Position numbers and translations under genes: made by a program. From an uncultured Planctomycetia bacterium (GTDB taxonomy: Bacteria > Omnitrophota > Gorgyraeia > Duberdicusellales > 4484-171), in contig CAZHYN010000009.1 of assembly GCA_964536865.1 (NCBI GenBank), positions 22,674 to 54,673 on the forward strand: a stretch of DNA of 32,000 nt, written 5' to 3'. Below the pieces are notes generated by a model that saw only the letters and a program-made list of their open reading frames with translations, ran no database searches and was not told where the DNA came from. Below are positions 3,305 to 18,437 of the stretch, in pieces (position 1 is the stretch's first letter; each line of letters begins with the position of its first letter).

Positions 3305-3332
3305 ATTATATAAATTATAAAAAGGTTGTCAA
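3305..3332 (-). promoter_or_regulatory. Near-consensus sigma70 promoter of ATPase A1
   Basis: Minus strand: TTGACA (3332..3327), 16-nt spacer, TATAAT (3310..3305). AGGA ribosome-binding site about 8 nt before ATG 3282. The leader carries a direct repeat of AATTTAGATTA x2. Confidence 0.5.
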
Positions 3333-3396
3333 GGCTCTCTCCTTTATATAAAACTATTTTATCCCTGTACAAAAAACAATCTTTTTTACACAACTT

Positions 3397-3764
3397 TCAG
3401 AAAGAGATTTAAACATTCTCAAATTCTTAAGAATATTGGAATAGTTTTTGTTAATCATTATCACTTTATCCAGCAAAATCCTACTTTTTCATAAAACTGG
3501 AGTTATGCAAAAGATTCCTGGGAATTCTTAAGACAATTCTTCCATCAGGTAACTGATAAAAAACTCTTTCTCCAACACAAAAAACATTGGGCAAACCTAA
3601 TTTTCTGTTTTCTGCTTGCGCTTTTCTTACAGCTTTGGTAAATATTGTAAGTATTTCTATCATCTCTTGATAAATAGTTTTAGGCTTCTGCCTTTTTTTT
3701 CATCCCTTCTCCTTTTTCCTGGCAATATAGATAAAAATCTTTTAAAATTTTCCTCATCTATTAT
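3397..3764. repeat. 368-bp direct repeat, copy A' (matches 14200..14566 apart from one 1-nt indel)
   Basis: Read by eye. The only difference seen is GGAATAGTTTTTG versus GGAATATTTTTG. Covers the 60-aa ORF and the 3' part of the upstream Phd-like ORF. Confidence 0.9.
3481..3663 (-). CDS. 60-aa conserved small protein (possible toxin-antitoxin component), copy A
   Basis: Identical to 14283..14465. In copy B its ATG overlaps the stop of the upstream ORF (ATGA). No family recognised. Confidence 0.45.
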   Translation of the reverse strand: MIEILTIFTKAVRKAQAENRKLGLPNVFCVGERVFYQLPDGRIVLRIPRNLLHNSSFMKK

Positions 3765-3821
3765 AGTATAATCTTCCTTTTCTCCACATGCTACTAAAAA
3801 TGGGTATAATAAATAATTCAC
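3660..3821 (-). pseudogene. 5'-truncated copy of the Phd/YefM-like ORF seen intact at 14462..14704
   Basis: The frame reads (V)NYLLYPFLVACGEKEDYTIIDEENFKRFLSILPGKRRRDEKKGRSLKLFIKR. It opens just after a TGA and lacks about 27 N-terminal residues present in copy B. Confidence 0.45.
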
Positions 3822-3863
3822 TCTTCATCTTGAACAACTCAACATTTATTCCTGCACCCTCCT

Positions 3864-5063
3864 TCAATAAAGAAAACCAAAAAGCCATAAGGGAATCCTG
3901 TTTTTAAATCCCACAATTATATCATCTACTGCTAAAAAAGTATCTTGAGAGCCTTTAAACTTTTTCTCTTTACCTCCAACTTCAAATGATATTCCTTTAC
4001 TATCTACAAAATCTACTTTATCAGAATAATATAGTTTTTTCAAAACTCCTACCTGATTAAGAAAGAATGTCTCTCTAATGTTTCCCTTCTCTATACTAAA
4101 ACCTTTCTCTTGTTCAATAAGGTAAAAAAGATTACTGTTTTCTAAATATATCTTTTGAGGTTTACGCAATAAACTAAATCCTTTTGCTTTTGAATAGAGT
4201 AAAATAAATAAACCTGCTTTTTGAAGTTCCTCAATATAAGTATAAATGTATTCCTTGGAAATTCCTAACTGTGAACTTATCTTAGAAATGTTAGGAATAA
4301 AAGGTTGAGAGGTGGCTACTAAGTAAAAAAGTTTTTTTAAATTATAGATTGTGAAGTGTTTAATATTAAAAAGCGAGGGTATATCTTCGTAGAATATTTT
4401 TTCTATTACATTACCTAATTTATTATAGAAGGATTCAATCCCTTCCTTAAAAAAGGGATAATAACCATATTTTAGATATTCCCTAAAGTATTTTAGAACA
4501 GGAAGTTGTGAACTGACCTCATCTGCCAATTTTATATGTTCTTTGGGCAGTTCCTTAAAATTAATGGACTTGAATTGCTTCTTTAGACGCAAAACTAAAT
4601 ATTCTCTGAAAGAAAGCCCCCTTAAATTATAAAAAACTGCTCTACGAGAAAGGTCTCCTTTTCCTTTTAAAATACCTATACTTGAACTCCCTGAAAATAT
4701 TATCTTTTTTTTAGGAAATGAATCATAAATATTCTTTAATTCTATTTGCCAATCAGGATATTTGTGGATTTCATCTATAAGAAGACCTTTTCCTCCAAAT
4801 TTGAAAAACTCCTCGGCTATATTATATAATCCTCTATTTATCACGTTTATATTATCTGCGGAAAGGTATAGACAATCCTGAGGAGTTCTAAAATTATGCA
4901 GATAATACTGTAAAAGTAAAGTAGTTTTACCTACTCCCCTTGCTCCTACAATCCCTATAAGACGATTACCCCAATTTATTTTTTCAAAAAGGTATCTTCT
5001 ATAAAAGAATTTTTCTACCTCCTTAATAAGTGACAACTGAATTTCTATAAATTTCTCTATCAT
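3864..5063 (-). CDS. AAA+ ATPase (AAA_14-like subfamily 2); cassette A2
   Basis: 399-aa ORF. Walker A GARGVGKTT, Walker B LLIDEIH, GSSS...DLSRRA...LSFREYL block, C-terminal IPLWLFGFLY. Paralogue of 12210..13403. Confidence 0.75.
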   Translation of the reverse strand: MIEKFIEIQLSLIKEVEKFFYRRYLFEKINWGNRLIGIVGARGVGKTTLLLQYYLHNFRTPQDCLYLSADNINVINRGLYNIAEEFFKFGGKGLLIDEIHKYPDWQIELKNIYDSFPKKKIIFSGSSSIGILKGKGDLSRRAVFYNLRGLSFREYLVLRLKKQFKSINFKELPKEHIKLADEVSSQLPVLKYFREYLKYGYYPFFKEGIESFYNKLGNVIEKIFYEDIPSLFNIKHFTIYNLKKLFYLVATSQPFIPNISKISSQLGISKEYIYTYIEELQKAGLFILLYSKAKGFSLLRKPQKIYLENSNLFYLIEQEKGFSIEKGNIRETFFLNQVGVLKKLYYSDKVDFVDSKGISFEVGGKEKKFKGSQDTFLAVDDIIVGFKNRIPLWLFGFLY

Positions 5064-5086
5064 AAGATTCCTTATATGTAAAGTAT

Positions 5087-5115
5087 AGTTTACTATTTTT
5101 GATAAAATCCGTCAA
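5087..5115 (-). promoter_or_regulatory. Sigma70-like promoter of ATPase A2
   Basis: Minus strand: TTGACG (5115..5110), 17-nt spacer, TAAACT (5092..5087). AAGGA ribosome-binding site before ATG 5063. Confidence 0.4.
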
Positions 5116-5425
5116 CTACAATTTACTCTCATATACTCTGGCTATCTCTTTTAGTTCTATCACTCCAGTTACTATCTACAGCGATAATCTCTGTTTTATC
5201 TTGAGGATAGATTAAATCTCATTAAGCAGTTTTCTATGTTTTTCTTCATCTCTGAAAACCTACCTCTTGTCAATAAAAACTTCTTTATTTTGTTTTTCTA
5301 CTTTATTTTATATTCTTTTAATGGTATTTAAGCCATTTATCTCTTCATTTCACTAAGGAGACAATTTTGTCCCTTTATTAAAACAGTTATTTCAACTCCT
5401 GGAGTTGTGTCTTCACATTTGGCAT

Positions 5426-5653
5426 TCATCTACTTATCAGATAATACCCTGCTCCACCAGTAACAAGAACAGTTGGAGGTTGGAAGTTGGAGGTTTGATG
5501 TTTGAGGTTGGATGATTGACGTTTGATGATTTGGGTTGATAAAACAAAATCTTCTGATTTAGGAAATTTCTTAGAAAGGTTGTAAATCTCCTTAACTAGA
5601 TTATTGGCTAACTTATATACTTCTAAATTTTCAAAATTATATTTTTGATACAT
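5426..5653 (-). pseudogene. Truncated four-helix-bundle (23S rRNA intervening-sequence protein family) gene, fused to heptamer repeats and to a fossil SDR N-terminus
   Basis: MYQKYNFENLEVYKLANNLVKEIYNLSKKFPKSEDFVLSTQI matches the N-terminal half of this family. The frame then runs into heptamer-repeat DNA and ends in TVLVTGGAGYYLISR, a decayed Rossmann start. The ATG at 5671 in the ORF track lies inside the repeat array, so 5653 is the more likely start. Confidence 0.6.
5472..5540. repeat. Heptanucleotide tandem array (about 10 units, GTTGGAG/GTTTGAT type)
   Basis: GTTGGAG GTTGGAA GTTGGAG GTTTGAT GTTTGAG GTTGGAT GATTGAC GTTTGAT GATTTGG GTTGAT, read directly. Confidence 0.85.
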
Positions 5654-5656
5654 AAT

Positions 5657-5705
5657 TCTAACATCTAACATCTAACATCCAACATCCAACATCTAACATC
5701 TAATC
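5657..5705. repeat. Heptanucleotide tandem array (7 units, TCTAACA/TCCAACA), inverted relative to 5472..5540
   Basis: TCTAACA x3, TCCAACA x2, TCTAACA, TCTAATC. The reverse complement TGTTAGA/TGTTGGA matches the unit of the other array. Confidence 0.85.
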
Positions 5706-5803
5706 AGCCCTAAATATTCCTGCTTCCCCTATCTTTTCCACTTTTGCGCAAAACTGGAATTCTTTCTGCCATTTCTGCCTCTTTCCTACCTACTACCTCC
5801 TGT

Positions 5804-7120
5804 CTACTGCCTACTATCTACTGTCCGCAGTAGCCATTTCCACAAAGGAATGAATTTTATTTTTATCTTGTTAATATTCAATTCTTCTTCATAATCCCAG
5901 GTAATTATTGACAAATTTTTACATTTTAATAAAGAGCTTGCTTTTTTTAAAAAATCTATTTCTTTTTTCTCCATCTCCTCTATTGTATTTATAAAACTAA
6001 CTTGAATTAAATTTTTAATTTCAGAACCTTCCTTTATCAAAAAATCTATCTCCCTTTGCTGATGGTCTTTGTAATAGTAAATTTCCCAATTATTTTGCCA
6101 GTAACTCTTTCTTCTTAAAAGCTCTACAGCTACCAGATTCTCCATAAGTTTTCCTATATTTTCAGAAATTTTAAAAGAAATAACATCTGCCATTGCTGTA
6201 TCAATACAATAAATCTTTTTGGGAGCAATTTCCTGCTGTTTCAGTTTTGGGGAGTATCTTTCGAGAACAAAGAGTAAATAGGAATCTTCTAAAGCCCCCA
6301 ACCAATTCTTTAAAGTATGCACATCTTTTATCTCAAATATATGAGAAAGTTTTCTCATCGTAAATTCAGAAGAAATGTTTGAAATCAGGTATCTGGCAAC
6401 TCTTTTAAAAGTTTCTTTTCTTTTAATTTTATATCTTTTTAAAATATCTTTTTCAATTATATCGGCATAAATTCGAGAAAGTATTTCTCTACCTAATATA
6501 TAAACTTCAGGAAAACCTCCAATTTTTATATACTCTTCTAAAAAACTTTTTATCTGGGCTATCTCAGAAACAGAATAAAAAGTATCTTTTTCAATTTTAA
6601 ATCCTTTATAATCTAAAAACTCTCGGAAACTAAAAGGAAATAGATTAAAATCAATGTATCTTCCTGTTAGATGTGTAGAAAGTTCTCCAGAAAGTAATTT
6701 AGAATTACTCCCTGTAATTATCAGGCTTTTAGTTCTTCTTAATCTATTTACAAATAACTCCCATTTTTCAACATTCTGGGGCTCATCTAAAATCATTCTT
6801 TCTATTTTTCCATAAAGCTCATAGAATGCCTGTAAAATTTTATCTAAATCTTCTGTTTTTATATCTGCTAATCTTTCATCGTCAAAATTAATATAGGCAA
6901 AAGCTTTATCTGATAAAGAAGAAAAAATCTGCCAAGAAAAGATAGACTTGCCACATCTTCTTACACCTAAGATTGCCAGAATATTAGGGTGGAAAAGAAA
7001 TTTTTTTAATCTATTCTTTTCTGGTTCTCGCTCTATAATTTTGCTCTTTTTAAATTTCTCCTCTATCTCTTCTTTTTGAGAAATAATCACTTTTTTAAGT
7101 ATTTCTACATTCATAACCAC
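5804..7120 (-). CDS. AAA+ ATPase (AAA_14 + DUF4143-like, COG1373-like); cassette A3
   Basis: 438-aa ORF. Walker A GVRRCGKS, Walker B ILDEPQ, ITGSNSKLL...LTGR...PFSFREFL, C-terminal KFIPLWKWLL. Paralogue of 8554..9828. The last few codons run into CTACTNN heptamer-like repeats (5790-5825). Confidence 0.8.
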   Translation of the reverse strand: MVMNVEILKKVIISQKEEIEEKFKKSKIIEREPEKNRLKKFLFHPNILAILGVRRCGKSIFSWQIFSSLSDKAFAYINFDDERLADIKTEDLDKILQAFYELYGKIERMILDEPQNVEKWELFVNRLRRTKSLIITGSNSKLLSGELSTHLTGRYIDFNLFPFSFREFLDYKGFKIEKDTFYSVSEIAQIKSFLEEYIKIGGFPEVYILGREILSRIYADIIEKDILKRYKIKRKETFKRVARYLISNISSEFTMRKLSHIFEIKDVHTLKNWLGALEDSYLLFVLERYSPKLKQQEIAPKKIYCIDTAMADVISFKISENIGKLMENLVAVELLRRKSYWQNNWEIYYYKDHQQREIDFLIKEGSEIKNLIQVSFINTIEEMEKKEIDFLKKASSLLKCKNLSIITWDYEEELNINKIKIKFIPLWKWLLRTVDSRQ

Positions 7121-7152
7121 ATATTTTTTATAAAAGTTTGCAGTTTCAATTT

Positions 7153-7181
7153 ATTATACCTTCATAATTTTACCTCTACAA
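7153..7181 (-). promoter_or_regulatory. Sigma70-like promoter of ATPase A3
   Basis: Minus strand: TTGTAG (7181..7176), 17-nt spacer, TATAAT (7158..7153). Confidence 0.35.
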
Positions 7182-7267
7182 GTAATTTTTGTCCCAAATT
7201 ATTACGATTATCATAACCTTATCTTCTTCGCCTCCCTGAGGCAGATGGTTTCTCAATCTTCTATTCC

Positions 7268-7445
7268 CTACCTTCCTAATTTCTTCTTACACTCCCCTTT
7301 CAGCAGCCATTTCCATAAAGGAATGAATTTTATTTTTTTACCTTTAAATTTATCTTCTGCTTCGTAATCCCAGGTTATTTTAATAAGTTGTCACTATTAA
7401 GTTCTTTACTGGCTTTAATGAAGAGGTGATTTCTCTTTCCTTAAT
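7268..7445 (-). pseudogene. 3' fossil of a further COG1373-like ATPase gene
   Basis: 7301-7376 is nearly identical at DNA level to the 3' end of 8554..9828. It encodes ITWDYEAEDKFKGKKIKFIPLWKWLLKGECKKKLGR-stop. The upstream part (REITSSLKPVKNLIVTTY-stop) is out of frame and stopped. Confidence 0.65.
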
Positions 7446-7470
7446 GGATATTTGCCTTAATGGATATTTG
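7439..7470. repeat. Perfect 16-bp tandem duplication (CCTTAATGGATATTTG x2)
   Basis: Read directly, at the upstream edge of the ATPase fossil. Confidence 0.9.
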
Positions 7471-7555
7471 GAGACAAAACTTCCAAAAGGAGATCTCGCT
7501 TCCGCTCTAAATGTTCTCCTGCATTGAAGAGATAGCCCTTCACTTTCCAAGAGTC

Positions 7556-8023
7556 TCAGAAGGTTTGCCTTCTACGGCCCTCTTTGCCTTCTTCGTTCAG
7601 CTTATCCTTTACCAATAAATCTATTGACATACCCCATAAAATCATAAAAGTCGCCCAGCCGGTTTTGTAAAATCTCGTATATTTTTTTAAGTCTAAATCA
7701 ACGTATTCATGCACAAGAATATTTCTTAATCCTGCCATACCACGAATGGTTTTAGCAAATTCAGAAGGAATTATTTCCCTCTCCCCTAACTTATCAATAA
7801 TATCTACATAATCTTCAATTTGATTTTCTCCTATAGAGGCTAAAATATGATTACCCACATCAAAAATAATTTGAATTGATAGTTGCAATCCGTGACAAAT
7901 TAACCACTGCTTGCCTAAGGATGAGGAAAAATCTTTCCAGGGAATATCTCTGTTTTTCTCTAATTCTTTCAAGTAGATACTTAATTCCTGAAACTTCTTT
8001 TCAATTACTTCCTTATCAATCAT
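7556..8023 (-). CDS. hepT: HEPN (DUF86) RNase toxin HepT, frameshifted after the catalytic motif
   Basis: GLRNILVHEY is the R-x4-H-x-Y motif. After the A7 run (T-run 7682..7688 on the plus strand) the annotated frame gives an atypical tail. The adjacent frame gives LKKIYEILQNRLGDFYDFMGYVNRFIGKG-stop, ending at 7602, which looks like a canonical HepT C-terminus. Confidence 0.8.
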   Translation of the reverse strand: MIDKEVIEKKFQELSIYLKELEKNRDIPWKDFSSSLGKQWLICHGLQLSIQIIFDVGNHILASIGENQIEDYVDIIDKLGEREIIPSEFAKTIRGMAGLRNILVHEYVDLDLKKYTRFYKTGWATFMILWGMSIDLLVKDKLNEEGKEGRRRQTF

Positions 8024-8065
8024 TTTCCCCTCCCCTTTTTTTGCTCCATTAAAGAAGGTAGTCCG

Positions 8066-8461
8066 CTAACGCGATTTAAGCAGATATTTATAATCGTTAT
8101 ATCTATTAATTGTATCTATCTGAAACTTAATGCGTTTTCTTTCGTCTTGACTATAGATAATTTTTCCGAAATATAAAATACGGTGCCTTAAGAGAGGATT
8201 TGCTTCATCAAGAATTACCAAATCGACATTATTTGTTTTTAACAGCTGAACTAAATCTGCTAATATTTCTGACTTATATCCATAAGGGTAAATCTTTTCT
8301 TTAATTCTATCTCTGTCTATAAGTAAGGCAATATCAATATCACTTAAGGGGTTCATCCTTCCCCGGGCTAAAGAGCCAAATACATAAGCAACCTCAACTT
8401 CGGGATGCATTTTGAAATACTCTTTTAATATTTCTTGAACTTCATTAATATTTCTTACCAT
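8066..8461 (-). CDS. mntA: Minimal nucleotidyltransferase antitoxin MntA
   Basis: VFGSLARGRMNPLSDIDIALL is the GSxxRG...DxD pol-beta NTase signature. Lies directly upstream of the HEPN gene (42-nt gap). Confidence 0.85.
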   Translation of the reverse strand: MVRNINEVQEILKEYFKMHPEVEVAYVFGSLARGRMNPLSDIDIALLIDRDRIKEKIYPYGYKSEILADLVQLLKTNNVDLVILDEANPLLRHRILYFGKIIYSQDERKRIKFQIDTINRYNDYKYLLKSR

Positions 8462-8553
8462 CTTAATGGCTATTGACTTTCGGAGTCAGCTCTTTACATT
8501 TGACTACACCTACGCGGTGTAAGAGGTTCTTCGGTTTTCTACCCACCATCTTT

Positions 8554-9828
8554 TCACAACTCCTTTCCTTCCAGCAGCCACCTCCATAAAGGGATGAATT
8601 TTATTTTTTTACCTTTAAATTCATCTTCTGCTTCGTAATCCCAGGTAATAATTGATAGATTATTGCACTTCAATTCTTCACTTGCCTCAAATAAAGATTT
8701 TATTTCTCTTTTCCTAACTTCAAAATTACTTATTTCATAACAAGTCTGCATTAATTCTTCAATCTCTGCTTTTTTTAAAACAAAATCAACTTCTTTTTTA
8801 TTTCTTGTTTGATAATAAAAAACATCTCTATTTAATCTATAACCCCTTCTTAAAGTTTCAACAAAAACCAGATTTTCCATTAGTCTTCCTGTATTTTGAG
8901 AAAACCTGAATGCTTTTGCCAGAATAAAACCATTATTAACAAGATAAATCTTTCTGGGAGACTTAATCTGCTCTTTTACTTTAAAAGAAAACCTATCCAG
9001 TGGGAAAAAGAGATAAGCTTCTTCAAGATATTTTAAATATTTCTGAAGTGTGTTTGTGCTTCTGAATTTTAAAATATTTTTTAACTTATTAAAACTGAAC
9101 TCAGAACAAAAATTACTTATTAAATAAACTGCCAAATCATAAATTTCTTGAGAAAATCTTACTCTGTATCTTTTTACTACATCTTTAAATAAGATAGCAT
9201 CAAAAAGTGTCTCTAAATAAGTTTCTGCAGGCAAATTCTTTAAAACTACTTCTGGAAAACCACCTTTTTTAAGATATTCATCTAAATAACCTAAAATTTT
9301 ACCTTTGACTTCAGGTATTTTTAAATATTCTTTTTTCACCTTAAAATTTTTTGCTACCAGAAATTCTCTGAAACTGAAAGGAAAAATCTCTATAGGGATA
9401 TATCTGCCTGTTAAAACTGTTCCTAATTCTTTACTTAAAAGTTTTGCATTGGAACCTGTCAGAATCAGATTATAGCCTCTTCTTTGAAGTTTGTTGACAA
9501 AAATTTCCCATTTTTCTAAATTTTGAATCTCATCAAATAAAATATATTTACTTTCAGAATAAACCTCAAAAATTGCCTTTACAATCTCATCATAATTTTT
9601 TATCTTTAAAAGCTGGTCGTCATCAAAATTTAAATAGGCAAAATTTTTATCCTTTAAAAGAAGAAAAGAAAAGATAGATTTGCCTGCTCTTCTTACTCCT
9701 GTAATTACCTTTATTAAATCACTATCTAAATACTTTTTAGCAAAATCAAGTTTTTCTCTTAAAATGTAATCCTGGGAAAGGATTTTTTCCTGTTCTAATT
9801 TATGCTGTAAAACAATATTCTTAATCAT
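8554..9828 (-). CDS. AAA+ ATPase (AAA_14 + DUF4143-like, COG1373-like); cassette A4
   Basis: 424-aa ORF. Walker A GVRRAGKS, Walker B ILFDEIQ, LTGSNAKLL...LTGR...PFSFREFL, C-terminal KFIPLWRWLL. Confidence 0.8.
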   Translation of the reverse strand: MIKNIVLQHKLEQEKILSQDYILREKLDFAKKYLDSDLIKVITGVRRAGKSIFSFLLLKDKNFAYLNFDDDQLLKIKNYDEIVKAIFEVYSESKYILFDEIQNLEKWEIFVNKLQRRGYNLILTGSNAKLLSKELGTVLTGRYIPIEIFPFSFREFLVAKNFKVKKEYLKIPEVKGKILGYLDEYLKKGGFPEVVLKNLPAETYLETLFDAILFKDVVKRYRVRFSQEIYDLAVYLISNFCSEFSFNKLKNILKFRSTNTLQKYLKYLEEAYLFFPLDRFSFKVKEQIKSPRKIYLVNNGFILAKAFRFSQNTGRLMENLVFVETLRRGYRLNRDVFYYQTRNKKEVDFVLKKAEIEELMQTCYEISNFEVRKREIKSLFEASEELKCNNLSIITWDYEAEDEFKGKKIKFIPLWRWLLEGKEL

Positions 9829-9872
9829 AATATTTAACTGAACAAAAAAATACTTTTTTGTTCACTATACTG

Positions 9873-9901
9873 ATTTTAGTGCAAAAAATTCACTCTGTCA
9901 A
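9873..9901 (-). promoter_or_regulatory. Sigma70-like proximal promoter of ATPase A4
   Basis: Minus strand: TTGACA (9901..9896), 17-nt spacer, TAAAAT (9878..9873). The leader holds an AT-rich inverted repeat, GAACAAAAAA/TTTTTTGTTC (about 9839-9864). Confidence 0.45.
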
Positions 9902-9940
9902 TTAAAAACTCCTTAAATCTTACTTCCTATACCTTCTTTG

Positions 9941-9978
9941 CACACCCGGCGGGTGTGATTGGTTAAGCAAGTCTACAC
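9941..9978. repeat. GC-rich palindromic upstream motif, copy 2 of 3 (perfect 8+1+8 palindrome)
   Basis: CACACCCG-G-CGGGTGTG (9941..9957) followed by ATTGGTTAAGCAAGTCTACAC. Lies 39 nt upstream of the -35 box of the A4 promoter. Confidence 0.7.
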
Positions 9979-10068
9979 CGAAATAAGCTGAGGAGGTTTT
10001 CTTTCCCACCATTGTTTGATAATTTCCCGTAGAATCTGTTTCATAACTTAATCAATATAGAACGATTT

Positions 10069-10115
10069 TTGACAAAATTGTTCTATAATTATAGATTTTT
10101 TGCTGGTTTTGTCAA
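10069..10115. promoter_or_regulatory. Back-to-back promoter-like elements (one per strand) sharing a TATAATTATA core
   Basis: Minus strand: TTGACA (10115..10110), 16 nt, TATAAT (10093..10088). Plus strand: TTGACA (10069..10074), 17 nt, TAGATT (10092..10097). Confidence 0.35.
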
Positions 10116-10149
10116 TATAATATTGCCACAGATAGGAATTCTCTAAAGC

Positions 10150-11301
10150 TTAGGACTTCCCTGTTTCCACCCCTGGGGTGGAAACAGGCTTTAGAATTTT
10201 CAGATTATCCCATTCTATATACTTAAAGTATTTTTTCTTATACTCAGCAGAGGGAATGTAAAAGAAAAAATTATCAGAATAGGTATTTACGGTAAAATAA
10301 GTTTCACCTCTTAAGTAATCTAAAACTTTCTCTAAGTCATAAGCAACAAAAGGAATTCTTCTTTCAATTAATGCTTTAACCATCTTAATAAAATCCTGGG
10401 CATAAGCGTAATTGATTACCCTTAAACCATATCTCCAATTATTATAGGAAGAAGGCGGATATAAATAGATGCCGTGCCTGTGCCAGCTAAAGACAATCTC
10501 AAAAGGATGTGAACCAAGCTCTCTTCCGTTTTTATACCAGTCTAAGAATTCTTTTTTGCTCGCCCAATTTTTAATACCAAGCATACCTCCATCCCTGCCA
10601 TCAGCAAATTTTTTATACATCTGGAGAGGACTAAATCCTGCCACTTTCTTACCATATGCAGCCTTATAACAGATGCTTGCTACCTCAAGATATTCATTTA
10701 GACTGCATCCCTTTAGTTTGATATTCTTCTTTAAAAGAGTGTTATAATCTCTTTCTATTTTTTCTTTCTCTCTCAAAGACAAAACCTTATCAAATATATA
10801 TTTACCTTTAATTCTTCCTGTGCGTAAATCATAAGGAATTATCTTTTTTAAAATCTCTGCACCTTTTCTTTCTATTAACCGGGTAAATCTTAAAGCCTCC
10901 TGAAAAATCTTCTTATAGATTTTTTCTGCAACCTCTTTTCCTTTACTTATCCTTAAACTTCCCAGGCTAAAAAAATAACAAAAATAATCTCTCTTATACT
11001 TTATAATCTTAAAAGGAAGGGCTACTACTTTGCCACTTCTTTTTGAAGGAAGGTAGAAATCTTCCCATCTTTTCTCTAACTTATCTTTATAAGAAGGATA
11101 AAATCTGCTGGTAAGCTCTTTTACTAAACTACATATTTGGGTATTCTTTATTAAACGAGGGTTTAATGAATCTTTTAAACAATACTCTAATTGGTAGAAA
11201 TTGATTCCGGGATTGATTTTTACCCCGTTAGAAAATAAAGTTCTTCTACGGGGTTTATTTCCATTTTTCTTTAATAAATATCTTTGCAATATTCTTAGCA
11301 T
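10150..11301 (-). CDS. 383-aa orphan protein, no recognisable domain
   Basis: Long uninterrupted ORF. ATG 11301 lies two codons after an in-frame TAG and 47 nt inside the upstream exonuclease gene. No motif I can place; the most conserved-looking block is GSHPFEIVFSWHRHGIYLYPP. Confidence 0.6.
   Translation of the reverse strand: MLRILQRYLLKKNGNKPRRRTLFSNGVKINPGINFYQLEYCLKDSLNPRLIKNTQICSLVKELTSRFYPSYKDKLEKRWEDFYLPSKRSGKVVALPFKIIKYKRDYFCYFFSLGSLRISKGKEVAEKIYKKIFQEALRFTRLIERKGAEILKKIIPYDLRTGRIKGKYIFDKVLSLREKEKIERDYNTLLKKNIKLKGCSLNEYLEVASICYKAAYGKKVAGFSPLQMYKKFADGRDGGMLGIKNWASKKEFLDWYKNGRELGSHPFEIVFSWHRHGIYLYPPSSYNNWRYGLRVINYAYAQDFIKMVKALIERRIPFVAYDLEKVLDYLRGETYFTVNTYSDNFFFYIPSAEYKKKYFKYIEWDNLKILKPVSTPGVETGKS
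10160..10188. repeat. 29-nt perfect palindrome (14-bp GC-rich arms)
   Basis: CCTGTTTCCACCCC-T-GGGGTGGAAACAGG, inside the last 13 codons of the orphan ORF. On the plus strand it is followed by CTTTAGAATTTTC. Confidence 0.85.
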
Positions 11302-11785
11302 CGTCTAAAGCACGATGATGAGTTCCTTCAAATTTAATTCCACAAATTTCAAGTGCCTTCTTTAACCCTACAGGCTTTGTTCTCCTCTTTTTAGCAAATT
11401 CATGCTTTATGCTTCTATGGGTTATAAAAGGATATTTAATATTATGGAACTGGCAATCTTTCATTAGCTGTTTTTTATCATAATAACCCCAGGAACAAAG
11501 AGTAATATCCTCAATTTTGCATTTAGCTGTTTGAATTACCCAATTGATGAATTTTTCAAATACTACAGGAAAAATCTCTGCGTTATCAACCTCTTCCTGA
11601 GTGATAGAGGTTAAATCCTTACAAAACTTGGACAGAATAGGATTCTTTACCGGCCTTACAAAACTTTGATATTCTCCCAAAATTTTATAATTTCTATCTA
11701 TCAAAACTGCTCCAATTTCTATAATCTCCTTTTCCTCTTTTGGATACTGCCAGCAGGTAGCCTCTAAATCAATTATCAGATACAC
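11255..11785 (-). CDS. DEDDh 3'-5' exonuclease (ERI-1/KapD/RNase T-like)
   Basis: 176-aa ORF with a GTG start. IIDLEATC (Exo I), SWGYYDKKQL (Exo II-like), GTHHRALDDAKN (Exo III with the H of DEDDh). Confidence 0.8.
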   Translation of the reverse strand: MYLIIDLEATCWQYPKEEKEIIEIGAVLIDRNYKILGEYQSFVRPVKNPILSKFCKDLTSITQEEVDNAEIFPVVFEKFINWVIQTAKCKIEDITLCSWGYYDKKQLMKDCQFHNIKYPFITHRSIKHEFAKKRRTKPVGLKKALEICGIKFEGTHHRALDDAKNIAKIFIKEKWK

Positions 11786-11948
11786 TTTATTTCAATTCTT
11801 TAATAAGTTTTCTTTTAAGCCAATGAGCACTGAATGAAATCTTTTTTGTTCCCTTTTAATTCTGATCCTTTAAATATATTTGATGCTTTCTGGATTAAGC
11901 TTTTAAATTTTTTAGGAATTTCTTTTTTATTCATAATCTCTTTTAGGG

Positions 11949-12083
11949 CTATTCCGAAGGATCCACCTCTGGTGGAAAGGTTTTCTCTGCTCTTAATCTC
12001 TCCCATTCCTGTTTCAAGTAATTATACTCCGCCTCAGCTCGTTTTAAGAAATAGTAGGTTAAACGAACTTTTTCTGCTATCAT
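11949..12083 (-). pseudogene. 3' fossil of the MarR-like regulator gene (third copy)
   Basis: 11985..12075 matches the 3' ends of the regulator genes at DNA level. It reads MIAEKVRLTYYFLKRAEAEYNYLKQEWERLRAEKTFPPEVDPSE-stop. The tail runs into a GC-rich mini-hairpin (11962..11976). Confidence 0.7.
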
Positions 12084-12209
12084 AAATCTTACAGGTTCAC
12101 TCTCCAATTTCTAATATAAAACTATCCTTCTTATCCTTCACCTCATTAAATTCATCTGTGATACACCACAATCAAACTAAAAAAGGGATAAGCATATTAA
12201 TTAAAAATG

Positions 12210-13403
12210 TTAACTTAAAAAACCCAAAATAAAAAGAGGCCGATATAAACCATCCATTCTATCAGAATCAGTAAAAATTAGTTTTCTATCTGCCTTAAAA
12301 CCTTTAAACTGAGTTCTACCTTTACCTTTCCCTCCAATCTCAATCACTAATTTTTCCCCTTTATAAGATACTACAAAATCAGGCGTTTTCTCTCCTCTTG
12401 TTGATTTTAAATAATATATTTTTTCATCTGCCATCCTCATCATCTCTACAAAGAAATCTTCCCTTAAAGCACCTAAATTTTCTTTGAACTCAGTATACAA
12501 TAATCTATAAGGGAGACTCATTAATATTTTAGGTTCCTTTAATACATTTGTTCCTTTAGGGAATACCTGATGTAAAATAAATGCTTTTTCTAATAAATTC
12601 ACATATTGCTCGGCTTTATAGCGAGTTATTCCACAATTACGTGCAATGGAAGAATAATTTATTCCTTCTGTTTCTGATTTTCCAATAAAAGAAAGCATTT
12701 TCTCTATAATTTCTAATTCTTTTACTTTTAAATCAAAAATATAGGGAATATCTTTATAAATAACCTTAGAACAAACATTTCTAAGTATATCCAAAACCAA
12801 TGGTTCCTCTAATGAAAAAGGATAAATTCCTCCTCGCAAATAATCATAAAATTTCTCACTATAAGAAAATATTTCTCTATCAAAATTTTTATTTAAAATA
12901 TCTTCCAAACTAAGTTTAGGAAAATTCACATTATATTTAAAAAATAAATATTCTCTGAAAGAGAAAGGATAAAGTTTCTTTAATAAAACTCGTCTTGAAA
13001 GATCATATTGAGTTTGCGAAAGAATAAAAGCTACCGAACTTGTAAAAATAATTCTTAAATCTAAATAATCATAAATTTTCTTTAAAGTTCCCTCAAATTC
13101 AGGATAAAAATGCACCTCATCTAAAAGTAATAAATTTATTTTAAAATCCTCTTTGGCTTTTTTAGCAACTTCGAATAAGTCTTCTTTTATTGCGTCAAGA
13201 GAAATATAAAGGGAGTTTTTGTATTCTTTTCTTATTTGTCTTAGAAGAACAGTTTTCCCAGCTCCTCTTGGTCCGGTAATACCTATAAAATGCTTGCCTT
13301 TTTCTTTTTGAAGATGAAAAAACAAAAATCTCCTCTTCGAATATTTTTCTATCGCTTTGAGCGCTAACCTATCGTATTCCAGTATTTTTTTAAAATCTAC
13401 CAT
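12210..13403 (-). CDS. AAA+ ATPase (AAA_14-like subfamily 2); cassette A5
   Basis: 397-aa ORF. Walker A GPRGAGKT, Walker B LLLLDEVH, DLSRRV...PFSFREYL, C-terminal RPLFILGFLS. Paralogue of 3864..5063. Confidence 0.75.
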   Translation of the reverse strand: MVDFKKILEYDRLALKAIEKYSKRRFLFFHLQKEKGKHFIGITGPRGAGKTVLLRQIRKEYKNSLYISLDAIKEDLFEVAKKAKEDFKINLLLLDEVHFYPEFEGTLKKIYDYLDLRIIFTSSVAFILSQTQYDLSRRVLLKKLYPFSFREYLFFKYNVNFPKLSLEDILNKNFDREIFSYSEKFYDYLRGGIYPFSLEEPLVLDILRNVCSKVIYKDIPYIFDLKVKELEIIEKMLSFIGKSETEGINYSSIARNCGITRYKAEQYVNLLEKAFILHQVFPKGTNVLKEPKILMSLPYRLLYTEFKENLGALREDFFVEMMRMADEKIYYLKSTRGEKTPDFVVSYKGEKLVIEIGGKGKGRTQFKGFKADRKLIFTDSDRMDGLYRPLFILGFLS

Positions 13404-13410
13404 CCTGTAA

Positions 13411-13458
13411 ATATCATTTTATACAATAATTATACAAAATGATATACATTATCGTCAA
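13411..13458 (-). promoter_or_regulatory. Sigma70-like promoter of ATPase A5, overlapped by a 35-bp palindrome
   Basis: Minus strand: TTGACG (13458..13453), 18 nt, TATAAT (13434..13429). Palindrome 13411..13445 has perfect 10-bp arms (ATATCATTTT/AAAATGATAT) and an ATAATTAT core, and it covers the -10 box and the start site. Confidence 0.45.
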
Positions 13459-13614
13459 TATCTTTTTATTTTGAGGAAAAATCCACCAAATATACACACA
13501 TTAGACAATATTTCATCCCTATACTCTCACCAATTTACCCCTTCCCCTGTTAAAAATGGTTTTCCCCTGAGATGTGCCAATCATACTTTCTCTAAGTATT
13601 TTTAGCTTTGCTTT

Positions 13615-14013
13615 TCAGAAAGTATATACTTTCTTTTGCTCTGCTCTTAATCTCTCCCATTCCTGTTTCAAGTAATTATACTCCGCCTCAGCTCGTTTTA
13701 AGAAATAGTAGGTTAAACGAACTTTTTCTTTAAAACCCTTAGGAGTTAATATATAGCTTATCTTCTTAATCTTACCAGGACGATGGGAGAAATTTTTTGC
13801 CTTTATTAACCCTTTTTTTATAAGTTTCCGCAGAAGGTAATTGGTTTTGCCTAAGGAAATATTCAATTTTGAGGAAAGTTGGCGTTGAGTAACATCAGGG
13901 GATTTAGAAAGCTCAGAAAGAAGATAGAATACCTCTTCTTTTAGCTGATCTTTAGAATTCAGATTTAGAAGCCTTTTTCCCTCTATACCTGGTTTACAAA
14001 TTTCTTGCTGCAT
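13615..14013 (-). CDS. Winged-helix (MarR-like) transcriptional regulator, copy B
   Basis: 132-aa ORF. The first 122 aa are identical to copy A; the C-terminal tail differs (AEQKKVYTF). Confidence 0.6.
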   Translation of the reverse strand: MQQEICKPGIEGKRLLNLNSKDQLKEEVFYLLSELSKSPDVTQRQLSSKLNISLGKTNYLLRKLIKKGLIKAKNFSHRPGKIKKISYILTPKGFKEKVRLTYYFLKRAEAEYNYLKQEWERLRAEQKKVYTF

Positions 14014-14144
14014 AAATACTACAAATTGTGTTCATATGATGAACAATATTCTATTACTACACAATAAATCTGTCAATATAGTAAAGAATGGCATAGTTTA
14101 TCTACACCCTTACATACCTGGCGGGTGTGATTAGTTAAGCAAGT
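13649..14144. repeat. 496-bp direct repeat, copy B (matches 1277..1772)
   Basis: See copy A. Includes the same promoter (-35 at 14076..14071, -10 at 14053..14048), the operator palindrome (14029..14045) and GC-rich motif copy 3 (14113..14144). Confidence 0.9.
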
Positions 14145-14199
14145 TAAATAATAGCAATTTTCACTCCTGGGATGAAAATTTGGTAACTTTATGCAAGTC

Positions 14200-14566
14200 T
14201 CAGAAAGAGATTTAAACATTCTCAAATTCTTAAGAATATTGGAATATTTTTGTTAATCATTATCACTTTATCCAGCAAAATCCTACTTTTTCATAAAACT
14301 GGAGTTATGCAAAAGATTCCTGGGAATTCTTAAGACAATTCTTCCATCAGGTAACTGATAAAAAACTCTTTCTCCAACACAAAAAACATTGGGCAAACCT
14401 AATTTTCTGTTTTCTGCTTGCGCTTTTCTTACAGCTTTGGTAAATATTGTAAGTATTTCTATCATCTCTTGATAAATAGTTTTAGGCTTCTGCCTTTTTT
14501 TTCATCCCTTCTCCTTTTTCCTGGCAATATAGATAAAAATCTTTTAAAATTTTCCTCATCTATTAT
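14200..14566. repeat. 367-bp direct repeat, copy B' (matches 3397..3764)
   Basis: See copy A'. Confidence 0.9.
14283..14465 (-). CDS. 60-aa conserved small protein, copy B
   Basis: Identical to 3481..3663. Its start overlaps the stop of the 80-aa ORF (ATGA). Confidence 0.45.
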   Translation of the reverse strand: MIEILTIFTKAVRKAQAENRKLGLPNVFCVGERVFYQLPDGRIVLRIPRNLLHNSSFMKK

Positions 14567-14704
14567 GGTATATTTTTTCTTTCCTCCATATGTTACTAAA
14601 AATGGAGTATCCCGAGAATTATTTATTAGAATCCACATATTGGCTAAATTTCTATAGACAATCCAGAAATTTCTAATACTTCTAACATCTCTTCTATAAA
14701 TCAC
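14462..14704 (-). CDS. 80-aa Phd/YefM-like small protein (tentative)
   Basis: SIRNFWIVYRNL...TPFLVTYGGKKKYTIIDEENFKRFLSIL follows the beta-alpha-beta-beta-alpha pattern of Phd/YefM antitoxins as I recall it, with a basic tail. Coupled by a 4-nt overlap to the 60-aa ORF. Confidence 0.4.
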   Translation of the reverse strand: MIYRRDVRSIRNFWIVYRNLANMWILINNSRDTPFLVTYGGKKKYTIIDEENFKRFLSILPGKRRRDEKKGRSLKLFIKR

Positions 14705-14825
14705 ATCTTTAGAAACATAATGGCTTTCTTTATTTATCCTGACTTCAATTCTTCTTACTGCTTCCTCAGGTGTATCTAAATAGAATAGATAAAAAATATT
14801 GTTATATGATAGTTATTTTTTTAAA

Positions 14826-15632
14826 CTAATAAATAGATAAAGGAGGGGCACTATTTTCTAAAAGCAATTGTGCCTTCTTCTTTAATCGTTTAAGCTCTTC
14901 AATTATCGATTGCCAATAAACTCTGTCCTCCTGCCGCAACTTTTCAATCTCTAAAGCTATCTGTTTGGAAGCTTCTTTTATGTAAAATTCCTTTTTCCCT
15001 TTTTCAACTAAAGCCTTGATGATAAGATTAAGGCATTTCCTTGCCAATGAATTAGCAACCATTCTTGCCCGACGATATTTTGATAAATAATATATTGCAT
15101 CCTCTATCTCAAATGTATTCTTTAAAATCCATTCCCAGTCCTGAAAAGATATAGAAGGATATAGATTACTATACTCTATCTTCACCAAATTAGAGATAAC
15201 AGGATAATCTTCCAATCGCCTTGTCTTCTTTATCTCTACCAAATCTCTTATGCCCACTACAGGAATCTTTCCCCACTCTGTTTGGTAATATACTGCTTTT
15301 TTAAATGCCCTTATGAAATTATCTACACGAGGCACTTTTCCCATTACATCTAAAAACCAACCTAAATTTTTCTTGCTTTGTTGAAATTGGAAATGATAAC
15401 CGTGCCCTTTTCTAATCAAATCCATTCTCAAAGGAGGAGTAAGTTTATATATCCTGCCTTTTATTTTTTTAATTACCTTGAGGAGTTTATTCCAATCTTG
15501 AGGAGTGGGATTTACCCATATATCTATATCCTCAGAAAAAGTAGCAGCTCCATAAAGAACTGCTGCCTGTCCGCTTATTAAAAGATACAAAACTCCTTCT
15601 GAGTTAAGGTCTTGGAAAAATTTTTTTATCAT
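14826..15632 (-). CDS. Minimal nucleotidyltransferase-fold protein with an unassigned helical C-terminal half
   Basis: 268-aa ORF. VLYLLISGQAAVLYGAATFSEDIDIWV resembles the G-[SG]...DxD pol-beta NTase signature. Confidence 0.5.
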   Translation of the reverse strand: MIKKFFQDLNSEGVLYLLISGQAAVLYGAATFSEDIDIWVNPTPQDWNKLLKVIKKIKGRIYKLTPPLRMDLIRKGHGYHFQFQQSKKNLGWFLDVMGKVPRVDNFIRAFKKAVYYQTEWGKIPVVGIRDLVEIKKTRRLEDYPVISNLVKIEYSNLYPSISFQDWEWILKNTFEIEDAIYYLSKYRRARMVANSLARKCLNLIIKALVEKGKKEFYIKEASKQIALEIEKLRQEDRVYWQSIIEELKRLKKKAQLLLENSAPPLSIY

Positions 15633-15771
15633 GGACTTCTTTTAGATTTTTTATCCTTCTTCTAAGTTCCCAGCTTCTTTTCAATCGTTGCGCAGAGGTA
15701 AATTTAATCCATATCTCTCTTTGATAAGTCTTGGGAAACAAAACTAACTTCTTCCTCCTATCTATCTTCAT
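15604..15771 (-). CDS. 55-aa basic small ORF overlapping the start of the NTase gene (below the ORF-track cutoff)
   Basis: My own translation: MKIDRRKKLVLFPKTYQREIWIKFTSAQRLKRSWELRRRIKNLKEVHDKKIFPRP. It overlaps the NTase ATG (15632) by 29 nt. Confidence 0.3.
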   Translation of the reverse strand: MKIDRRKKLVLFPKTYQREIWIKFTSAQRLKRSWELRRRIKNLKEVHDKKIFPRP

Positions 15772-15890
15772 CTCCCTACCCTACTGCTCTGTTAAAAATC
15801 CCTGTTTTAGAAACTCGTCTTTTTATCTACAATGAATTATATATAAAAAATTCTCTTTAATCAATATATCTGAATCAAGGTTTTGTCAAC

Positions 15891-17190
15891 AAAATTGTGT
15901 AAATTTTTCATAAAGACTATACCCTCCATAATTAAAGTTATTGTTTTTGTTAAATCTTTCCACTAATAGATAAATAACTCTATTTGCACTCTTTATGTCT
16001 CTAAAAACCAGCCCAATATCTGGTTAGTTGTTCTAATCTTTTAAGAACCTCTCTATTAAATTGGTGCTTTTTATTAGAGAATGAAATTTAGCGGGATAAT
16101 TATAAAAGGTTAAAGTCTCATCTATGGTTCTGGTAAGAATCTTAAAGAATTTAGGTTCTTTATTCTGGTAAAGATTTTTAAATTCATTCAGTCTCTTTAA
16201 GAATTCTTCTCTGTTGCCTGCTTTATAGAGATTGTAAGTAGTTTTTCTTATTTGGGGAAGGAGTCTTTTATTATGGATAATCTTTGAGGCCTCCCTTACA
16301 TAATGGATTGAGCAGATTTGAATATCTTTATTAGGATATACAAATAAAAAGGCATTCTTAATACATCTTTTACCATCACAGATGAGCATTTTTAAAAATG
16401 CTCCCTCTAATCCCTTATCCTTTAAATCAAAGAAGAAATTAGTGTAGTTAGTCTCATTCTCAGAGGATACTATTTTAAAATAAAGAACTTCATAGTTTAA
16501 ATCCTGTTTTATCCCTATACAGAATATTACTGGTCTTTTTCTTTTACTCTCTGGATTTATTTTAATATAGTTGGCATCTACTATTAAGAAGAGATAACCA
16601 TCGGTTAATTTCTTCTTTATTTAAGAATTGATTAACTAAGCTATCTAATCTTTTTAAAATATTAGATACTGGCTGATGACTAATATTAGATTCACTAAAG
16701 AAATCATAGAAGAATTTAGAAACCTTCCTGCTAGATTGCCCATTAAGAAAACAATTTAACACCGCATAGTCAAATTCATCTAACCTTCTTTTATATCTCT
16801 CTAAAAGTTTAAATTCTATTCTTTGCCTTGCTCTGGGTACTAAGAAATTATCAATCCTTCCTACCAGATGAGTAATTAAACTCCTCTTGTAGCAGCCATT
16901 ACGATAGCCTACCCTTAACTGTGTATGCTGATACTTCTCTGCTTTTAATATGGCTTCTAATTCCTTATTTAGGCTATATTCTAACAATTCTTTAATCATC
17001 TGCTTTACCTTGCCCTTTACATCCTGCCAGAATACCTCTCCTGGCAAAATACCCTTAACATTTGCCCATCTTAAGAGTAAATTTTCCCATTATCAAAATT
17101 TAATCTTCTCATAGGCTATATACCTCCTTTCTTTATTTAGGAGGGTATAGCCTTTTTTGTTACCTTTGTCAATTAGAATTTACACAGAAT
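15891..17190 (-). mobile_element. Decayed IS256-family (Mutator-type) insertion sequence, about 1.3 kb
   Basis: Imperfect terminal inverted repeats: TGTGTAAATT (15896..15905 versus 17177..17186) and CTATACCCTCC (15917..15927 versus 17140..17150). It encloses the transposase fragments. Exact ends and target duplication are not resolved. Confidence 0.65.
15930..17047 (-). pseudogene. IS256-like transposase, disrupted
   Basis: Fragments 16562..17047 (GYRNGCYKRSL, QSSRKVSKFF) and 16033..16389 (LICDGKR, STNLIERFLKD) match IS256/Mutator transposase blocks. There is a frameshift near 16560-16600 (YLLLIVDANYIKI is in another frame). In-frame TAG (16033..16035) and TAA (16024..16026) are followed by more transposase-like codons (IGLVFRDIKSANRVIYLLVERF). 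The N-terminus is also out of frame. Confidence 0.75.
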
Positions 17191-17387: not shown

Positions 17388-18437
17388 CTATTCAATGGTA
17401 TACGATGTTGAAGATAAAAACTTTTTTGCCCAACTAAGTAACTTATCTATTCCCCTCTCAAATGATATAGTTGATTCCCAACCAAGATCCCTTTTAATTT
17501 TGGAAATATCAGAGATATAAACTTTTTGGTCAAAAGGTCGCCAATTGGAATATTTTACCTTTGGTTTTCTATCTAACTTTTTACTCAAAAGATTAAGAAA
17601 TTCTAATAGAGATGTGGCGTTCTCTGGACCTCCTCCGATATTATAGACACTATGTTTTATTTTACTTCTCACAAATAAATCAAAAGCTTTAACTAAATCT
17701 TTCACATAAAGGACATCTCTTACCTGCTTACCGTTGCCATAGATAGTTATAGGTTCCTCTTTTAAGGCAGTAATAATAAAATGGGCAATCCAACCTTGAT
17801 CCTCAAAACCAAACTGACGCACCCCATAAATACAACTCATACGAAAAACCCCTGTCCTTATTCCATAAATATAAGCATATTCTTGAACGTAGAGATCTCC
17901 CAAATACTTACTTACCCCATAAGGAGTATGAGGAGAACTATCGATAGACATTTCTTCAGAAATAGCTCTTACTCCTTTATAAACATAACGTGTTTTTAGC
18001 TCTTTTATAGGAAGATTACACACGTTCCCTCCATAAACTTTGTTTGTAGAGCAATATATAAAAGTTGCTTTTGGAGATTTTCTTCTTATGCATTCCAACA
18101 CATTAAATGTGCCCAAGGCATTAATAGCAAAATCTAAGCGAGGATTCTTAACCGATGAGAGAACCCCGGGTTGAGCAGCACAATGAATTACAACATCTAC
18201 ACCTCTGCCAATAGCTTCTCTTACATCTTTTATCTTCCTCACATCTCCTAATATTCTCTCAATGTTGGAATACCTTTTTAAATATTCCCAATTATACTCA
18301 ACACTTTTTTTAGAATACCCAAATATCTTAGAGCGTATAAGATTATCTAAAACTGTTACTTTCCACCTTCTCTTAGCATAGTATTCAGCAACATGACTTC
18401 CTATAAAGCCCGCTCCTCCTGTAACTAAAATTTTCAT
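17388..18437 (-). CDS. SDR epimerase, CDP-paratose 2-epimerase-like
   Basis: 349-aa ORF. GGAGFIGSH, STNKVYG, TPYGVSK, FEDQGWIAHF, IYGNGKQVRDVLYVKD, NIGGGPENATSLLE, PFDQKVYISDISK. This block pattern matches RfbE-type tyvelose/paratose epimerases as I recall them. Confidence 0.65.
   Translation of the reverse strand: MKILVTGGAGFIGSHVAEYYAKRRWKVTVLDNLIRSKIFGYSKKSVEYNWEYLKRYSNIERILGDVRKIKDVREAIGRGVDVVIHCAAQPGVLSSVKNPRLDFAINALGTFNVLECIRRKSPKATFIYCSTNKVYGGNVCNLPIKELKTRYVYKGVRAISEEMSIDSSPHTPYGVSKYLGDLYVQEYAYIYGIRTGVFRMSCIYGVRQFGFEDQGWIAHFIITALKEEPITIYGNGKQVRDVLYVKDLVKAFDLFVRSKIKHSVYNIGGGPENATSLLEFLNLLSKKLDRKPKVKYSNWRPFDQKVYISDISKIKRDLGWESTISFERGIDKLLSWAKKFLSSTSYTIE

Follow-up and report, generated by a model that had tools for sequence, protein, structure and literature searches.

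The described systems that come closest to the locus studied here are the ERI-1/3'hExo/KapD exonucleases, the MNT/HEPN (MntA-HepT) and AbiE modules, the systems in PADLOC and DefenseFinder that join a nuclease to an unknown partner (PDC candidates and Cas-associated DEDDh) and, at the level of DNA elements, miniature inverted-repeat transposable elements (MITEs) and repetitive extragenic palindromes (REPs). We compared with them a pair of overlapping open reading frames (ORFs), one for a DEDDh exonuclease and one for a protein of 383 amino acids (aa), at positions 10150-11785 of a 32,000-nucleotide (nt) stretch from an uncultured Planctomycetia bacterium (contig CAZHYN010000009.1; Omnitrophota in GTDB), which in its full length we will henceforth refer to as the window. 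An initial annotation had proposed the pair as a novel two-gene module of defence type. We found that the region 10150-11934 is instead a copy, now partly decayed, of an accessory operon that comprises three genes and is confined to one lineage. Its large gene encodes a true orphan from a family that normally stands alone and is often pseudogenised; judged from the alleles compared, the long overlap between the two ORFs is a non-native side effect of a 35-nt insertion.

The exonuclease and its operon

The smaller gene (11255-11785; GTG start, 176 aa) encodes what sequence and structure comparisons identify, in line with its first description, as a compact ERI-1/KapD-like DEDDh 3'-5' exonuclease (the genes, gene remnants, insertion and promoter described below between 10088 and 12075 all lie on the minus strand). 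The protein aligns end to end with the Pfam RNase_T model (PF00929; residues 3-170 of 176, 2.4e-25, 90.4 bits against a cutoff of 24) and with the ERI1 nuclease domain, the human ERI1/3'hExo nuclease domains being its closest solved structures (1.9e-23). The catalytic D-E-D-D and H motifs are all present and align to the ERI1 structure 1w0h: the known DLEAT ... HHRALDD pattern is retained within IIDLEATC (DLEAT at residues 5-9) and GTHHRALDDA near the C-terminus. Unlike the described enzymes, the window protein consists of the nuclease domain alone, without a SAP or other accessory domain, and belongs to an operon led by a transferase. It is related to KapD without being its equivalog (100.8 bits for NCBIfam NF005838, against a cutoff of 169), and the PADLOC models it matched were 'DEDDh, Cas-associated' and PDC-S48. 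The likeness to catalogued nuclease systems lies in the exonuclease and the flanking ATPases, which match PADLOC models. The ~350-aa protein matches none, conservation of the pairing is lacking, and no cas gene was found among the annotated ORFs.

The exonuclease family is very large (more than 3,400 matches), and its nearest members outside the clade of the window occur in different gene contexts, one of them straight after an AbiEii gene. At L038/L039 (3707-5546; L numbers denote loci other than the window), an exonuclease homologue with 67% identity to that of the window comes directly after a 194-aa ORF and an AbiEii toxin gene, at a spacing of 2 nt. From this arrangement one might suspect that nucleotidyltransferase toxin-antitoxin modules repeatedly acquire ERI-1-like exonucleases as add-ons; a literature search on links between DEDDh nucleases and such modules found nothing relevant.

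We compared ten loci with 83-97% nucleotide identity to the window region. The intact gene order, seen in L036, L051 and L041, is a 258-aa nucleotidyltransferase of the Polbeta/MNT type (N-terminal Polbeta domain, Pfam 1.3e-10), the exonuclease and the ~350-aa protein. In L036, which is 97% identical to the window at the nucleotide level, the transferase (695-1471) and the exonuclease (1473-2003) are followed by the start of the large gene; in both L036 and L051 the transferase stop lies one base before the exonuclease ATG (GGATAAAATG), an ATG that stands in L041 too at the position of the window's GTG. The L041 trio is more diverged, with protein identities of 74% (transferase), 88% (exonuclease) and 79% (large protein). 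In the uninterrupted alleles L045 and L048, exonuclease stop and large-gene start overlap by 10 nt (ATGGAAGTAA; in L045 the exonuclease ORF ends at 417 and the large gene begins at 408). Such tight packing (a 1-nt gap and a 10-nt overlap) indicates one transcript with translational coupling, so that the co-expression initially read from the window's overlap holds for the ancestral arrangement.

Among these relatives the operon is decayed to different degrees, its three genes having been lost by deletion or frameshift independently of one another. L008, a 209-kb contig of a metagenome-assembled genome (MAG) that is 90-95% identical to and syntenic with the window, has the transferase, 13 nt and then the large gene, with no exonuclease between them; L001 and L042 keep only a transferase remnant and the large gene; and in L040 (Omnitrophica bacterium 4484_70.1) and L043 a transferase remnant and only the final 50 nt of the exonuclease precede a large gene with its native ATG. 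The exonuclease has therefore been lost within the close clade in L001, L008, L042, L040 and L043. We had considered reading its presence or absence as a simple insertion flanked by GAAATAAA repeats, and dropped this because L041, L045, L040 and L043 show that the ancestor of the subclade already had the exonuclease, which separate deletions later removed. In L045, L048 and L051 the large gene is broken as well, by a 22-nt insertion that contains the palindrome TCCACCTCTGGTGGA, and L045 and L051 have further indels (in L051 the gene has four besides the 35-nt insertion), while L040 and L043 carry an in-frame 21-nt version of the same insertion and L040 also a 16-nt deletion. In all five alleles the palindrome sits at the equivalent of window position ~10744, where the 22-nt form shifts the frame and the 21-nt form adds 7 residues in frame.

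In the window the missing gene is the transferase, of which a remnant persists at 11793-11934 after an internal deletion of ~615 nt; it was detected by tblastn with the L008 protein and is supported by blastn (L051 377-436 matches window 11931-11872, and L051 from 1074 onwards matches window 11848 onwards). Joined to it is a regulator fossil (11981-12075), the 3' end of an HTH_24/MarR-type gene that is a 99% identical copy of 13635-13729. It occupies the place of the operon's promoter region, which is gone from the window; in L036 and L051 the operon is preceded by a promoter region of the type found at 14098-14253. Each gene of the operon is thus dispensable in some lineage, as one would expect if they were accessory genes and not core ones.

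The lead gene resembles MNT/HEPN and AbiE modules in its minimal Polbeta-type domain, and relatives of the large gene often lie beside AbiEii/AbiEi or MNT/HEPN genes. Those modules differ from the 258-aa transferase, which is longer, forms a single protein and has no Pfam match in its C-terminal half. In the L008 copy (5205-5981) the C-terminal ~150 residues match no Pfam model and contain an R-x4-H-like string, REKRFH, and the transferase may be an MNT-HEPN-like fusion (KNTase-type architecture). The exonuclease and the ~350-aa protein fall outside the described toxin-antitoxin families, no AbiE or HEPN model having matched, and we did not assign the window unit to AbiE or MNT/HEPN, as it lacks cognate toxin and antitoxin domains and retains only the transferase remnant.

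A 35-nt insertion and the start of the large gene

The 383-aa ORF (10150-11301) overlaps the exonuclease ORF over 47 nt (11255-11301), and the first account of its start was accurate: the in-frame codons read TAG, ACG and then the ATG at 11301, the second codon after the stop. The other canonical in-frame starts are a TTG at codon 5 (11289, within the overlap) and then none before codon 174 (10782), so the roughly 100 codons initially said to lack an alternative start were an underestimate. The conserved body of the protein comprises residues 27-383 (10150-11223; 357 codons). It is preceded by a non-native 5' extension of 26 codons (11224-11301), of which 14 run out of frame through the 3' end of the exonuclease gene and 12 through an insertion. 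The extension is conserved in no homologue in either of our family alignments (A1/A2), in which every sequence begins at window residue ~25-28 with M-x-[VI]-K-I-N-P, and its predicted local distance difference test (pLDDT) scores are 50-57.

We compared the junction between the two genes across nine alleles. In L045 and L048 it reads ...AAAGAAAAATGGAAGTAAAAATCAATCCC, with the exonuclease ending in TGG-AAG-TAA and the large gene starting with ATG-GAA-GTA-AAA-ATC-AAT-CCC (MEVKINP); the same ATG position is used in L040 and L043 (METKINP) and in L041 (MGIKINP). In the window this native ATG lies at 11262-11264, and the segment ATAAACCCCGTAGAAGAACTTTATTTTCTAACGGG (window 11258-11224) sits between ATGGAA and GTAAAAATC. 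This 35-nt insertion (11224-11258) consists of a 5-nt target duplication (ATAAA/GTAAA on the two flanks) and a 30-nt palindromic miniature element, CCCCGTAGAAGAACTTTATTTTCTAACGGG (11224-11253), with the ends CCCCGT...ACGGGG. By indel comparison it is present in the window, L036 and L051 and absent from L045, L048, L008, L040 and L043, the empty site being visible in L045 and L048. Because 35 is not a multiple of three, the start is frameshifted: the native ATG is cut off and now opens a 14-codon ORF (MEINPVEELYFLTG*) that ends at a TAA. The insertion also places the ATG at 11301, inside the exonuclease gene, in frame with the conserved body, which makes the 47-nt overlap its by-product.

Like MITE and REP elements, the insertion has short terminal inverted repeats (TIRs) and a 5-nt duplicated target. 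Unlike them, the element is only 30 nt long (far below typical MITE size) and could be linked to no parent transposase; one copy is seen in the 32-kb window. That it is a mobile miniature element is supported by a related element of 108 nt in L041 (1163-1270), 23 nt farther upstream, which has 13/14-nt TIRs (CCCGTTAGAAAAA/TTTTTTAACGGG) and a 6-nt target site duplication (TSD), ATTTAT.

Across an A-rich run (AAAGAAAAATGG) the reading frame of the large ORF is +1 to that of the exonuclease, a configuration in which programmed +1 ribosomal frameshifting might be imagined to fuse the two proteins. Such a fusion would be too long for the family, whose maximum is ~440 aa among 150 listed representatives, and the large gene has its own ATG in the uninterrupted alleles; we regard this explanation as extremely improbable.

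Quite conceivable, if on balance doubtful, is that the large gene of the window is already dead, i.e., a recently inactivated and untranslated ORF beside which only the exonuclease, if anything, still functions. The diversion of the native ATG into a 14-codon ORF would be in keeping with this, as would the absence of an evident Shine-Dalgarno-like sequence before the ATG at 11301, the deletion of the lead gene and the replacement of the promoter region by the regulator fossil, with only weak promoter matches upstream. Pseudogenes are, moreover, common among close relatives, and L051 combines the same insertion with its four further indels; these indels are, however, common to L045, which lacks the insertion, and so are not its consequence. 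Against it, the 357-codon body in the window is intact and retains all family-invariant residues, the ATG at 11301 is in frame and open, and the window branch is not accelerated (non-synonymous divergence, dN, to the L041 outgroup of 0.122, against 0.124 for L008). At its 3' end the window ORF reads through a palindrome, TCCACCCCTGGGGTGGA (10166-10182), that is part of a 14-bp perfect inverted repeat. Farther downstream, and upstream of an AAA_14 ATPase gene, a sigma-70-type promoter with a perfect TTGACA-16-TATAAT (10088-10115) marks the 3' boundary of the transcription unit.

These comparisons bear directly on the proposal of a dedicated two-gene defence module, in which a DEDDh effector and an unknown partner would be coupled by an overlap evolved for that purpose. 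The ORFs do overlap as described with no alternative start, L036 and L051, from two other metagenomes, carry the same allele, and the island around the pair is rich in toxin-antitoxin and candidate defence genes. Yet the overlap was made by an insertion that five other close alleles lack, the native operon comprises three genes rather than two, and the large protein is not represented among the PADLOC models. Linkage is also shallow: the exonuclease adjoins the large gene only in the window, L036, L051, L045 and L041 (at least 79% identity) and, besides its repeated loss within the clade, was missing from every more distant locus examined. Specifically, tblastn with the window exonuclease gave 0 matches in the first 35 loci carrying the large gene, and no copy was found in the more distant metagenome loci L044, L046, L047, L050, L052 and L053. 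The two-gene proposal thus appears largely refuted, and we consider it very unlikely.

The orphan family and its gene neighbours

The large protein could not be assigned to any family from its motifs at first sight, and database searches bore this out: it has no match in Pfam, NCBIfam, PADLOC (0 families at E<=1) or PHROGs, and scans of all 110 family members at E<=5, plus 10 distant members, gave nothing consistent. The best hit of a sequence profile search against the PDB was a chance match (E 0.53), and structure and profile comparisons with solved structures (PDB) or viral predicted structures (BFVD) gave no significant match. The AlphaFold2 model, built from a 110-sequence alignment, is nonetheless confident (pLDDT 92.7, predicted TM-score 0.85) and weak only over the first ~25 and last ~10 residues.

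A word-indexed search recovered 179 homologues, and a full search with a hidden Markov model of 1.84 billion cluster representatives recovered 508 clusters at E<=1e-3 (93 at E<=1e-30); every named member, including the source names of the distant clusters, is 'hypothetical'. With the two peptide patterns used, 28 of 185,579 GTDB species representatives were found to carry the family, among them Methanoperedens, several DPANN lineages, Altiarchaeia, Thermoplasmata, Nitrososphaerota, Methanomethylicota, an Asgard-like MAG, Nitrospirota, Thermodesulfovibrionales and Elusimicrobia. Such a scattered distribution across two domains of life points to horizontal transfer. No copies were found among IMG/VR viral contigs, INPHARED phages or PLSDB plasmids.

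When relatives of 400-430 aa at 20-27% identity are included in an extended superfamily, G162, D234, R236, W255 and H265 are invariant and R160, Y212 and E268 nearly so; together they form the motifs A-D-x-R-x-G-G and H-P-[FW]-E-I. Ratios of non-synonymous to synonymous divergence (dN/dS) of 0.09-0.21 among intact close relatives indicate purifying selection. From this conservation, D234-x-R236 and H265-P-x-E268 may form an active or ligand-binding site. Basic charge was discarded as a sign of nucleic-acid binding: the core family has a median pI of 9.1, but distant members are acidic.

At ~40 more distant loci the large gene occurs without the exonuclease, mostly in toxin-antitoxin islands (AbiE, MNT/HEPN, PIN, AAA_14). 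A neighbour census of 138 ORFs at 25 loci was headed by AAA_14 (5), Polbeta (5), AbiEii (4), PIN (4), Metallophos (4), HATPase_c_4 (3), HEPN (3) and AbiEi_2 (2). AbiEii-type transferases lie directly upstream of the large gene in L010, L018 and L028, AbiEi/AbiEii genes downstream in L005 and L024, Polbeta transferases on its flanks in L025 and an AAA_14 ATPase gene upstream in L012. Small Metallophos phosphoesterase genes abut or overlap the large gene in L005 (2913-3407), L016 (7034-7516) and L013 (5328-5990), and those of L005 and L016 (~160 aa; from bacterial and Pacearchaeota MAGs) match each other at 1e-77 in opposite gene order; the Metallophos and ~350-aa genes may thus form a real functional partnership. 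In L010 a gene for an AP_endonuc_2 TIM-barrel protein overlaps the large gene by 4 nt. A conserved downstream partner was considered and rejected, since L003 and L007 have unrelated ORFs there (138 and 142 aa).

The initial annotation had named, as grounds for abandoning its proposal, homologues found mostly without the exonuclease and in core metabolic contexts. The first is what we observed; the contexts, by contrast, are mainly toxin-antitoxin islands. It nevertheless has to be asked whether the ~350-aa protein is a housekeeping or metabolic enzyme whose proximity to the exonuclease and to toxin-antitoxin genes is a coincidence of variable regions. Strong purifying selection would fit such a role, as would the loci at which all neighbours are housekeeping genes and a distant relative (P0267) that lies among glycogen phosphorylase, deaminase, GH20 and MFS genes. 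The extremely patchy distribution, the frequent pseudogenisation and presence/absence variation among near-identical genomes, and the predominance of toxin-antitoxin or defence families among the neighbours all speak against it, and we judge it unlikely.

We think it probable, with moderate confidence, that the locus is the remnant of a decayed three-gene operon whose overlap came from an insertion and whose ~350-aa family has an accessory role in conflict or stress. The ancestral unit comprised the transferase, exonuclease and ~350-aa genes, apparently on one coupled transcript. In the window, the transferase and the operon promoter region have been deleted, and the miniature element has landed precisely in the gap from the ATG to the third codon of the large gene, leaving the accidental open frame from an upstream ATG that was annotated as a 47-nt overlap. 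The large gene has moved horizontally among uncultivated archaea and bacteria. As to function, a conflict or stress role is plausible at low confidence, given the family's residence in islands, patchy distribution and frequent pseudogenisation. The transferase neighbours of toxin-antitoxin type and the adjacent phosphoesterases (DEDDh here, Metallophos at three loci and an AP-endonuclease-type protein at one) led us to propose that the ~350-aa protein might serve, as an enzyme or by binding a ligand, in a conflict or stress module whose targets are the 3' ends of nucleic acids or nucleotides, with the exonuclease perhaps an exchangeable trimming accessory rather than an obligate partner; a functional tie of the family to nucleotidyltransferase toxins and 3'-end phosphoesterases may exist, a suggestion we make with low confidence.

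Several observations weigh against this account. The miniature element is single in the window and was seen elsewhere only in the same allele, its mobility resting on the L041 element and on its TIR/TSD anatomy. The neighbours of the large gene are heterogeneous, several loci being purely housekeeping (ribosomal protein S12, PolB, spermidine synthase, peptidase A24). Finally, given how many toxin-antitoxin genes these organisms carry, adjacency may reflect no more than common residence in variable islands. A bolder version, in which the family would be a new enzyme fold (with D-x-R and H-P-x-E as its site) at the core of an unrecognised archaeal and bacterial conflict or RNA-end-repair module that recruits interchangeable DEDDh, Metallophos or AP-endonuclease-type enzymes alongside AbiEii or MNT toxins, strikes us as improbable.

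The surrounding island

The neighbourhood is the toxin-antitoxin and defence-type island initially described, with AAA+ ATPases, a MntA/HepT module and the regulator fossil beside the pair. Five stand-alone AAA_14-type ATPase genes lie within 12 kb (1948-3282, 3864-5063, 5804-7120, 8554-9828 and 12210-13403), four of them AAA_14 with or without DUF4143 and one ATPase_2/DUF234 (1948-3282). The two that flank the pair, AAA_14/DUF4143 genes at 8554-9828 and 12210-13403, were scanned against PADLOC and both matched the candidate PDC-S01 (5e-114 for the former). The MntA/HepT pair (7556-8461) is a separate cassette and is absent from L008. A 142-nt repeat is common to the 3' ends of the ATPase genes 5804-7120 and 8554-9828 (5828-5969 and 8572-8713), with a third copy beside the MntA/HepT cassette (7301-7442). 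Among the ATPase cassettes lies an 81-aa ORF (5426-5671) of the '23S rRNA intervening sequence protein' family (PF05635, 1.3e-8).

An HTH_24/MarR-type regulator is duplicated together with its upstream region (1228-1641 against 13615-14013, and 3385-3744 against 14188-14546; up to 100% identity over 300 nt). The ATPase_2/DUF234 gene interrupts the second copy, and a third, 95-nt fragment is the fossil beside the operon remnant; duplicates, split copy and fragment together indicate repeated cassette insertion or recombination at the regulator. An intergenic element of ~41 nt occurs three times (1738-1778, 9938-9978 and 14110-14150), upstream of the HTH_24 regulator copies and an AAA_14 ATPase gene, and consists of a perfect palindrome, ACACCCGnCGGGTGT, followed by a consensus -35/-10 promoter; TTGACA promoters are found, e.g., at 10088-10115 and 9873-9901. 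As this element joins the large gene to different cassettes in L048 and L054, it appears to be a shared operator/promoter and a recombination point for cassette shuffling.

The REP-like palindrome TCCACCTCTGGTGGA lies at 11962-11976 and, identically, at 31693-31707, with variants at 10166-10182 and 25469-25483 (4 occurrences against 0.07 expected). An Rfam scan of 9000-15000 matched no RNA family. Genes for nucleotide-sugar and polysaccharide biosynthesis (70-1065 and 17388-25378; epimerases, a DegT aminotransferase, UDP-glucose dehydrogenases and LptD) surround the whole island (~1200-17100), to which Mutator-family transposase fragments at 16033-17047 also belong; this is a typical variable surface-polysaccharide locus.

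In this setting the gene pair is one more example of what is common in uncultivated bacteria: a lineage-specific cassette undergoing decay within a toxin-antitoxin island. For annotation it carries a caution: a long overlap forced by the choice of start codon can arise from the insertion of a tiny mobile element, and such overlaps need comparison with empty-site alleles before they are read as designed coupling. The lasting interest lies in the structurally unmatched orphan family, with ~500 clusters that include DPANN, Methanoperedens, Nitrososphaerota, Nitrospirota and Omnitrophota-like lineages. Its predicted structure is very confident and its invariant polar residues suggest an active site; it is a reasonable candidate for structural and biochemical study and for inclusion in defence and toxin-antitoxin screens.

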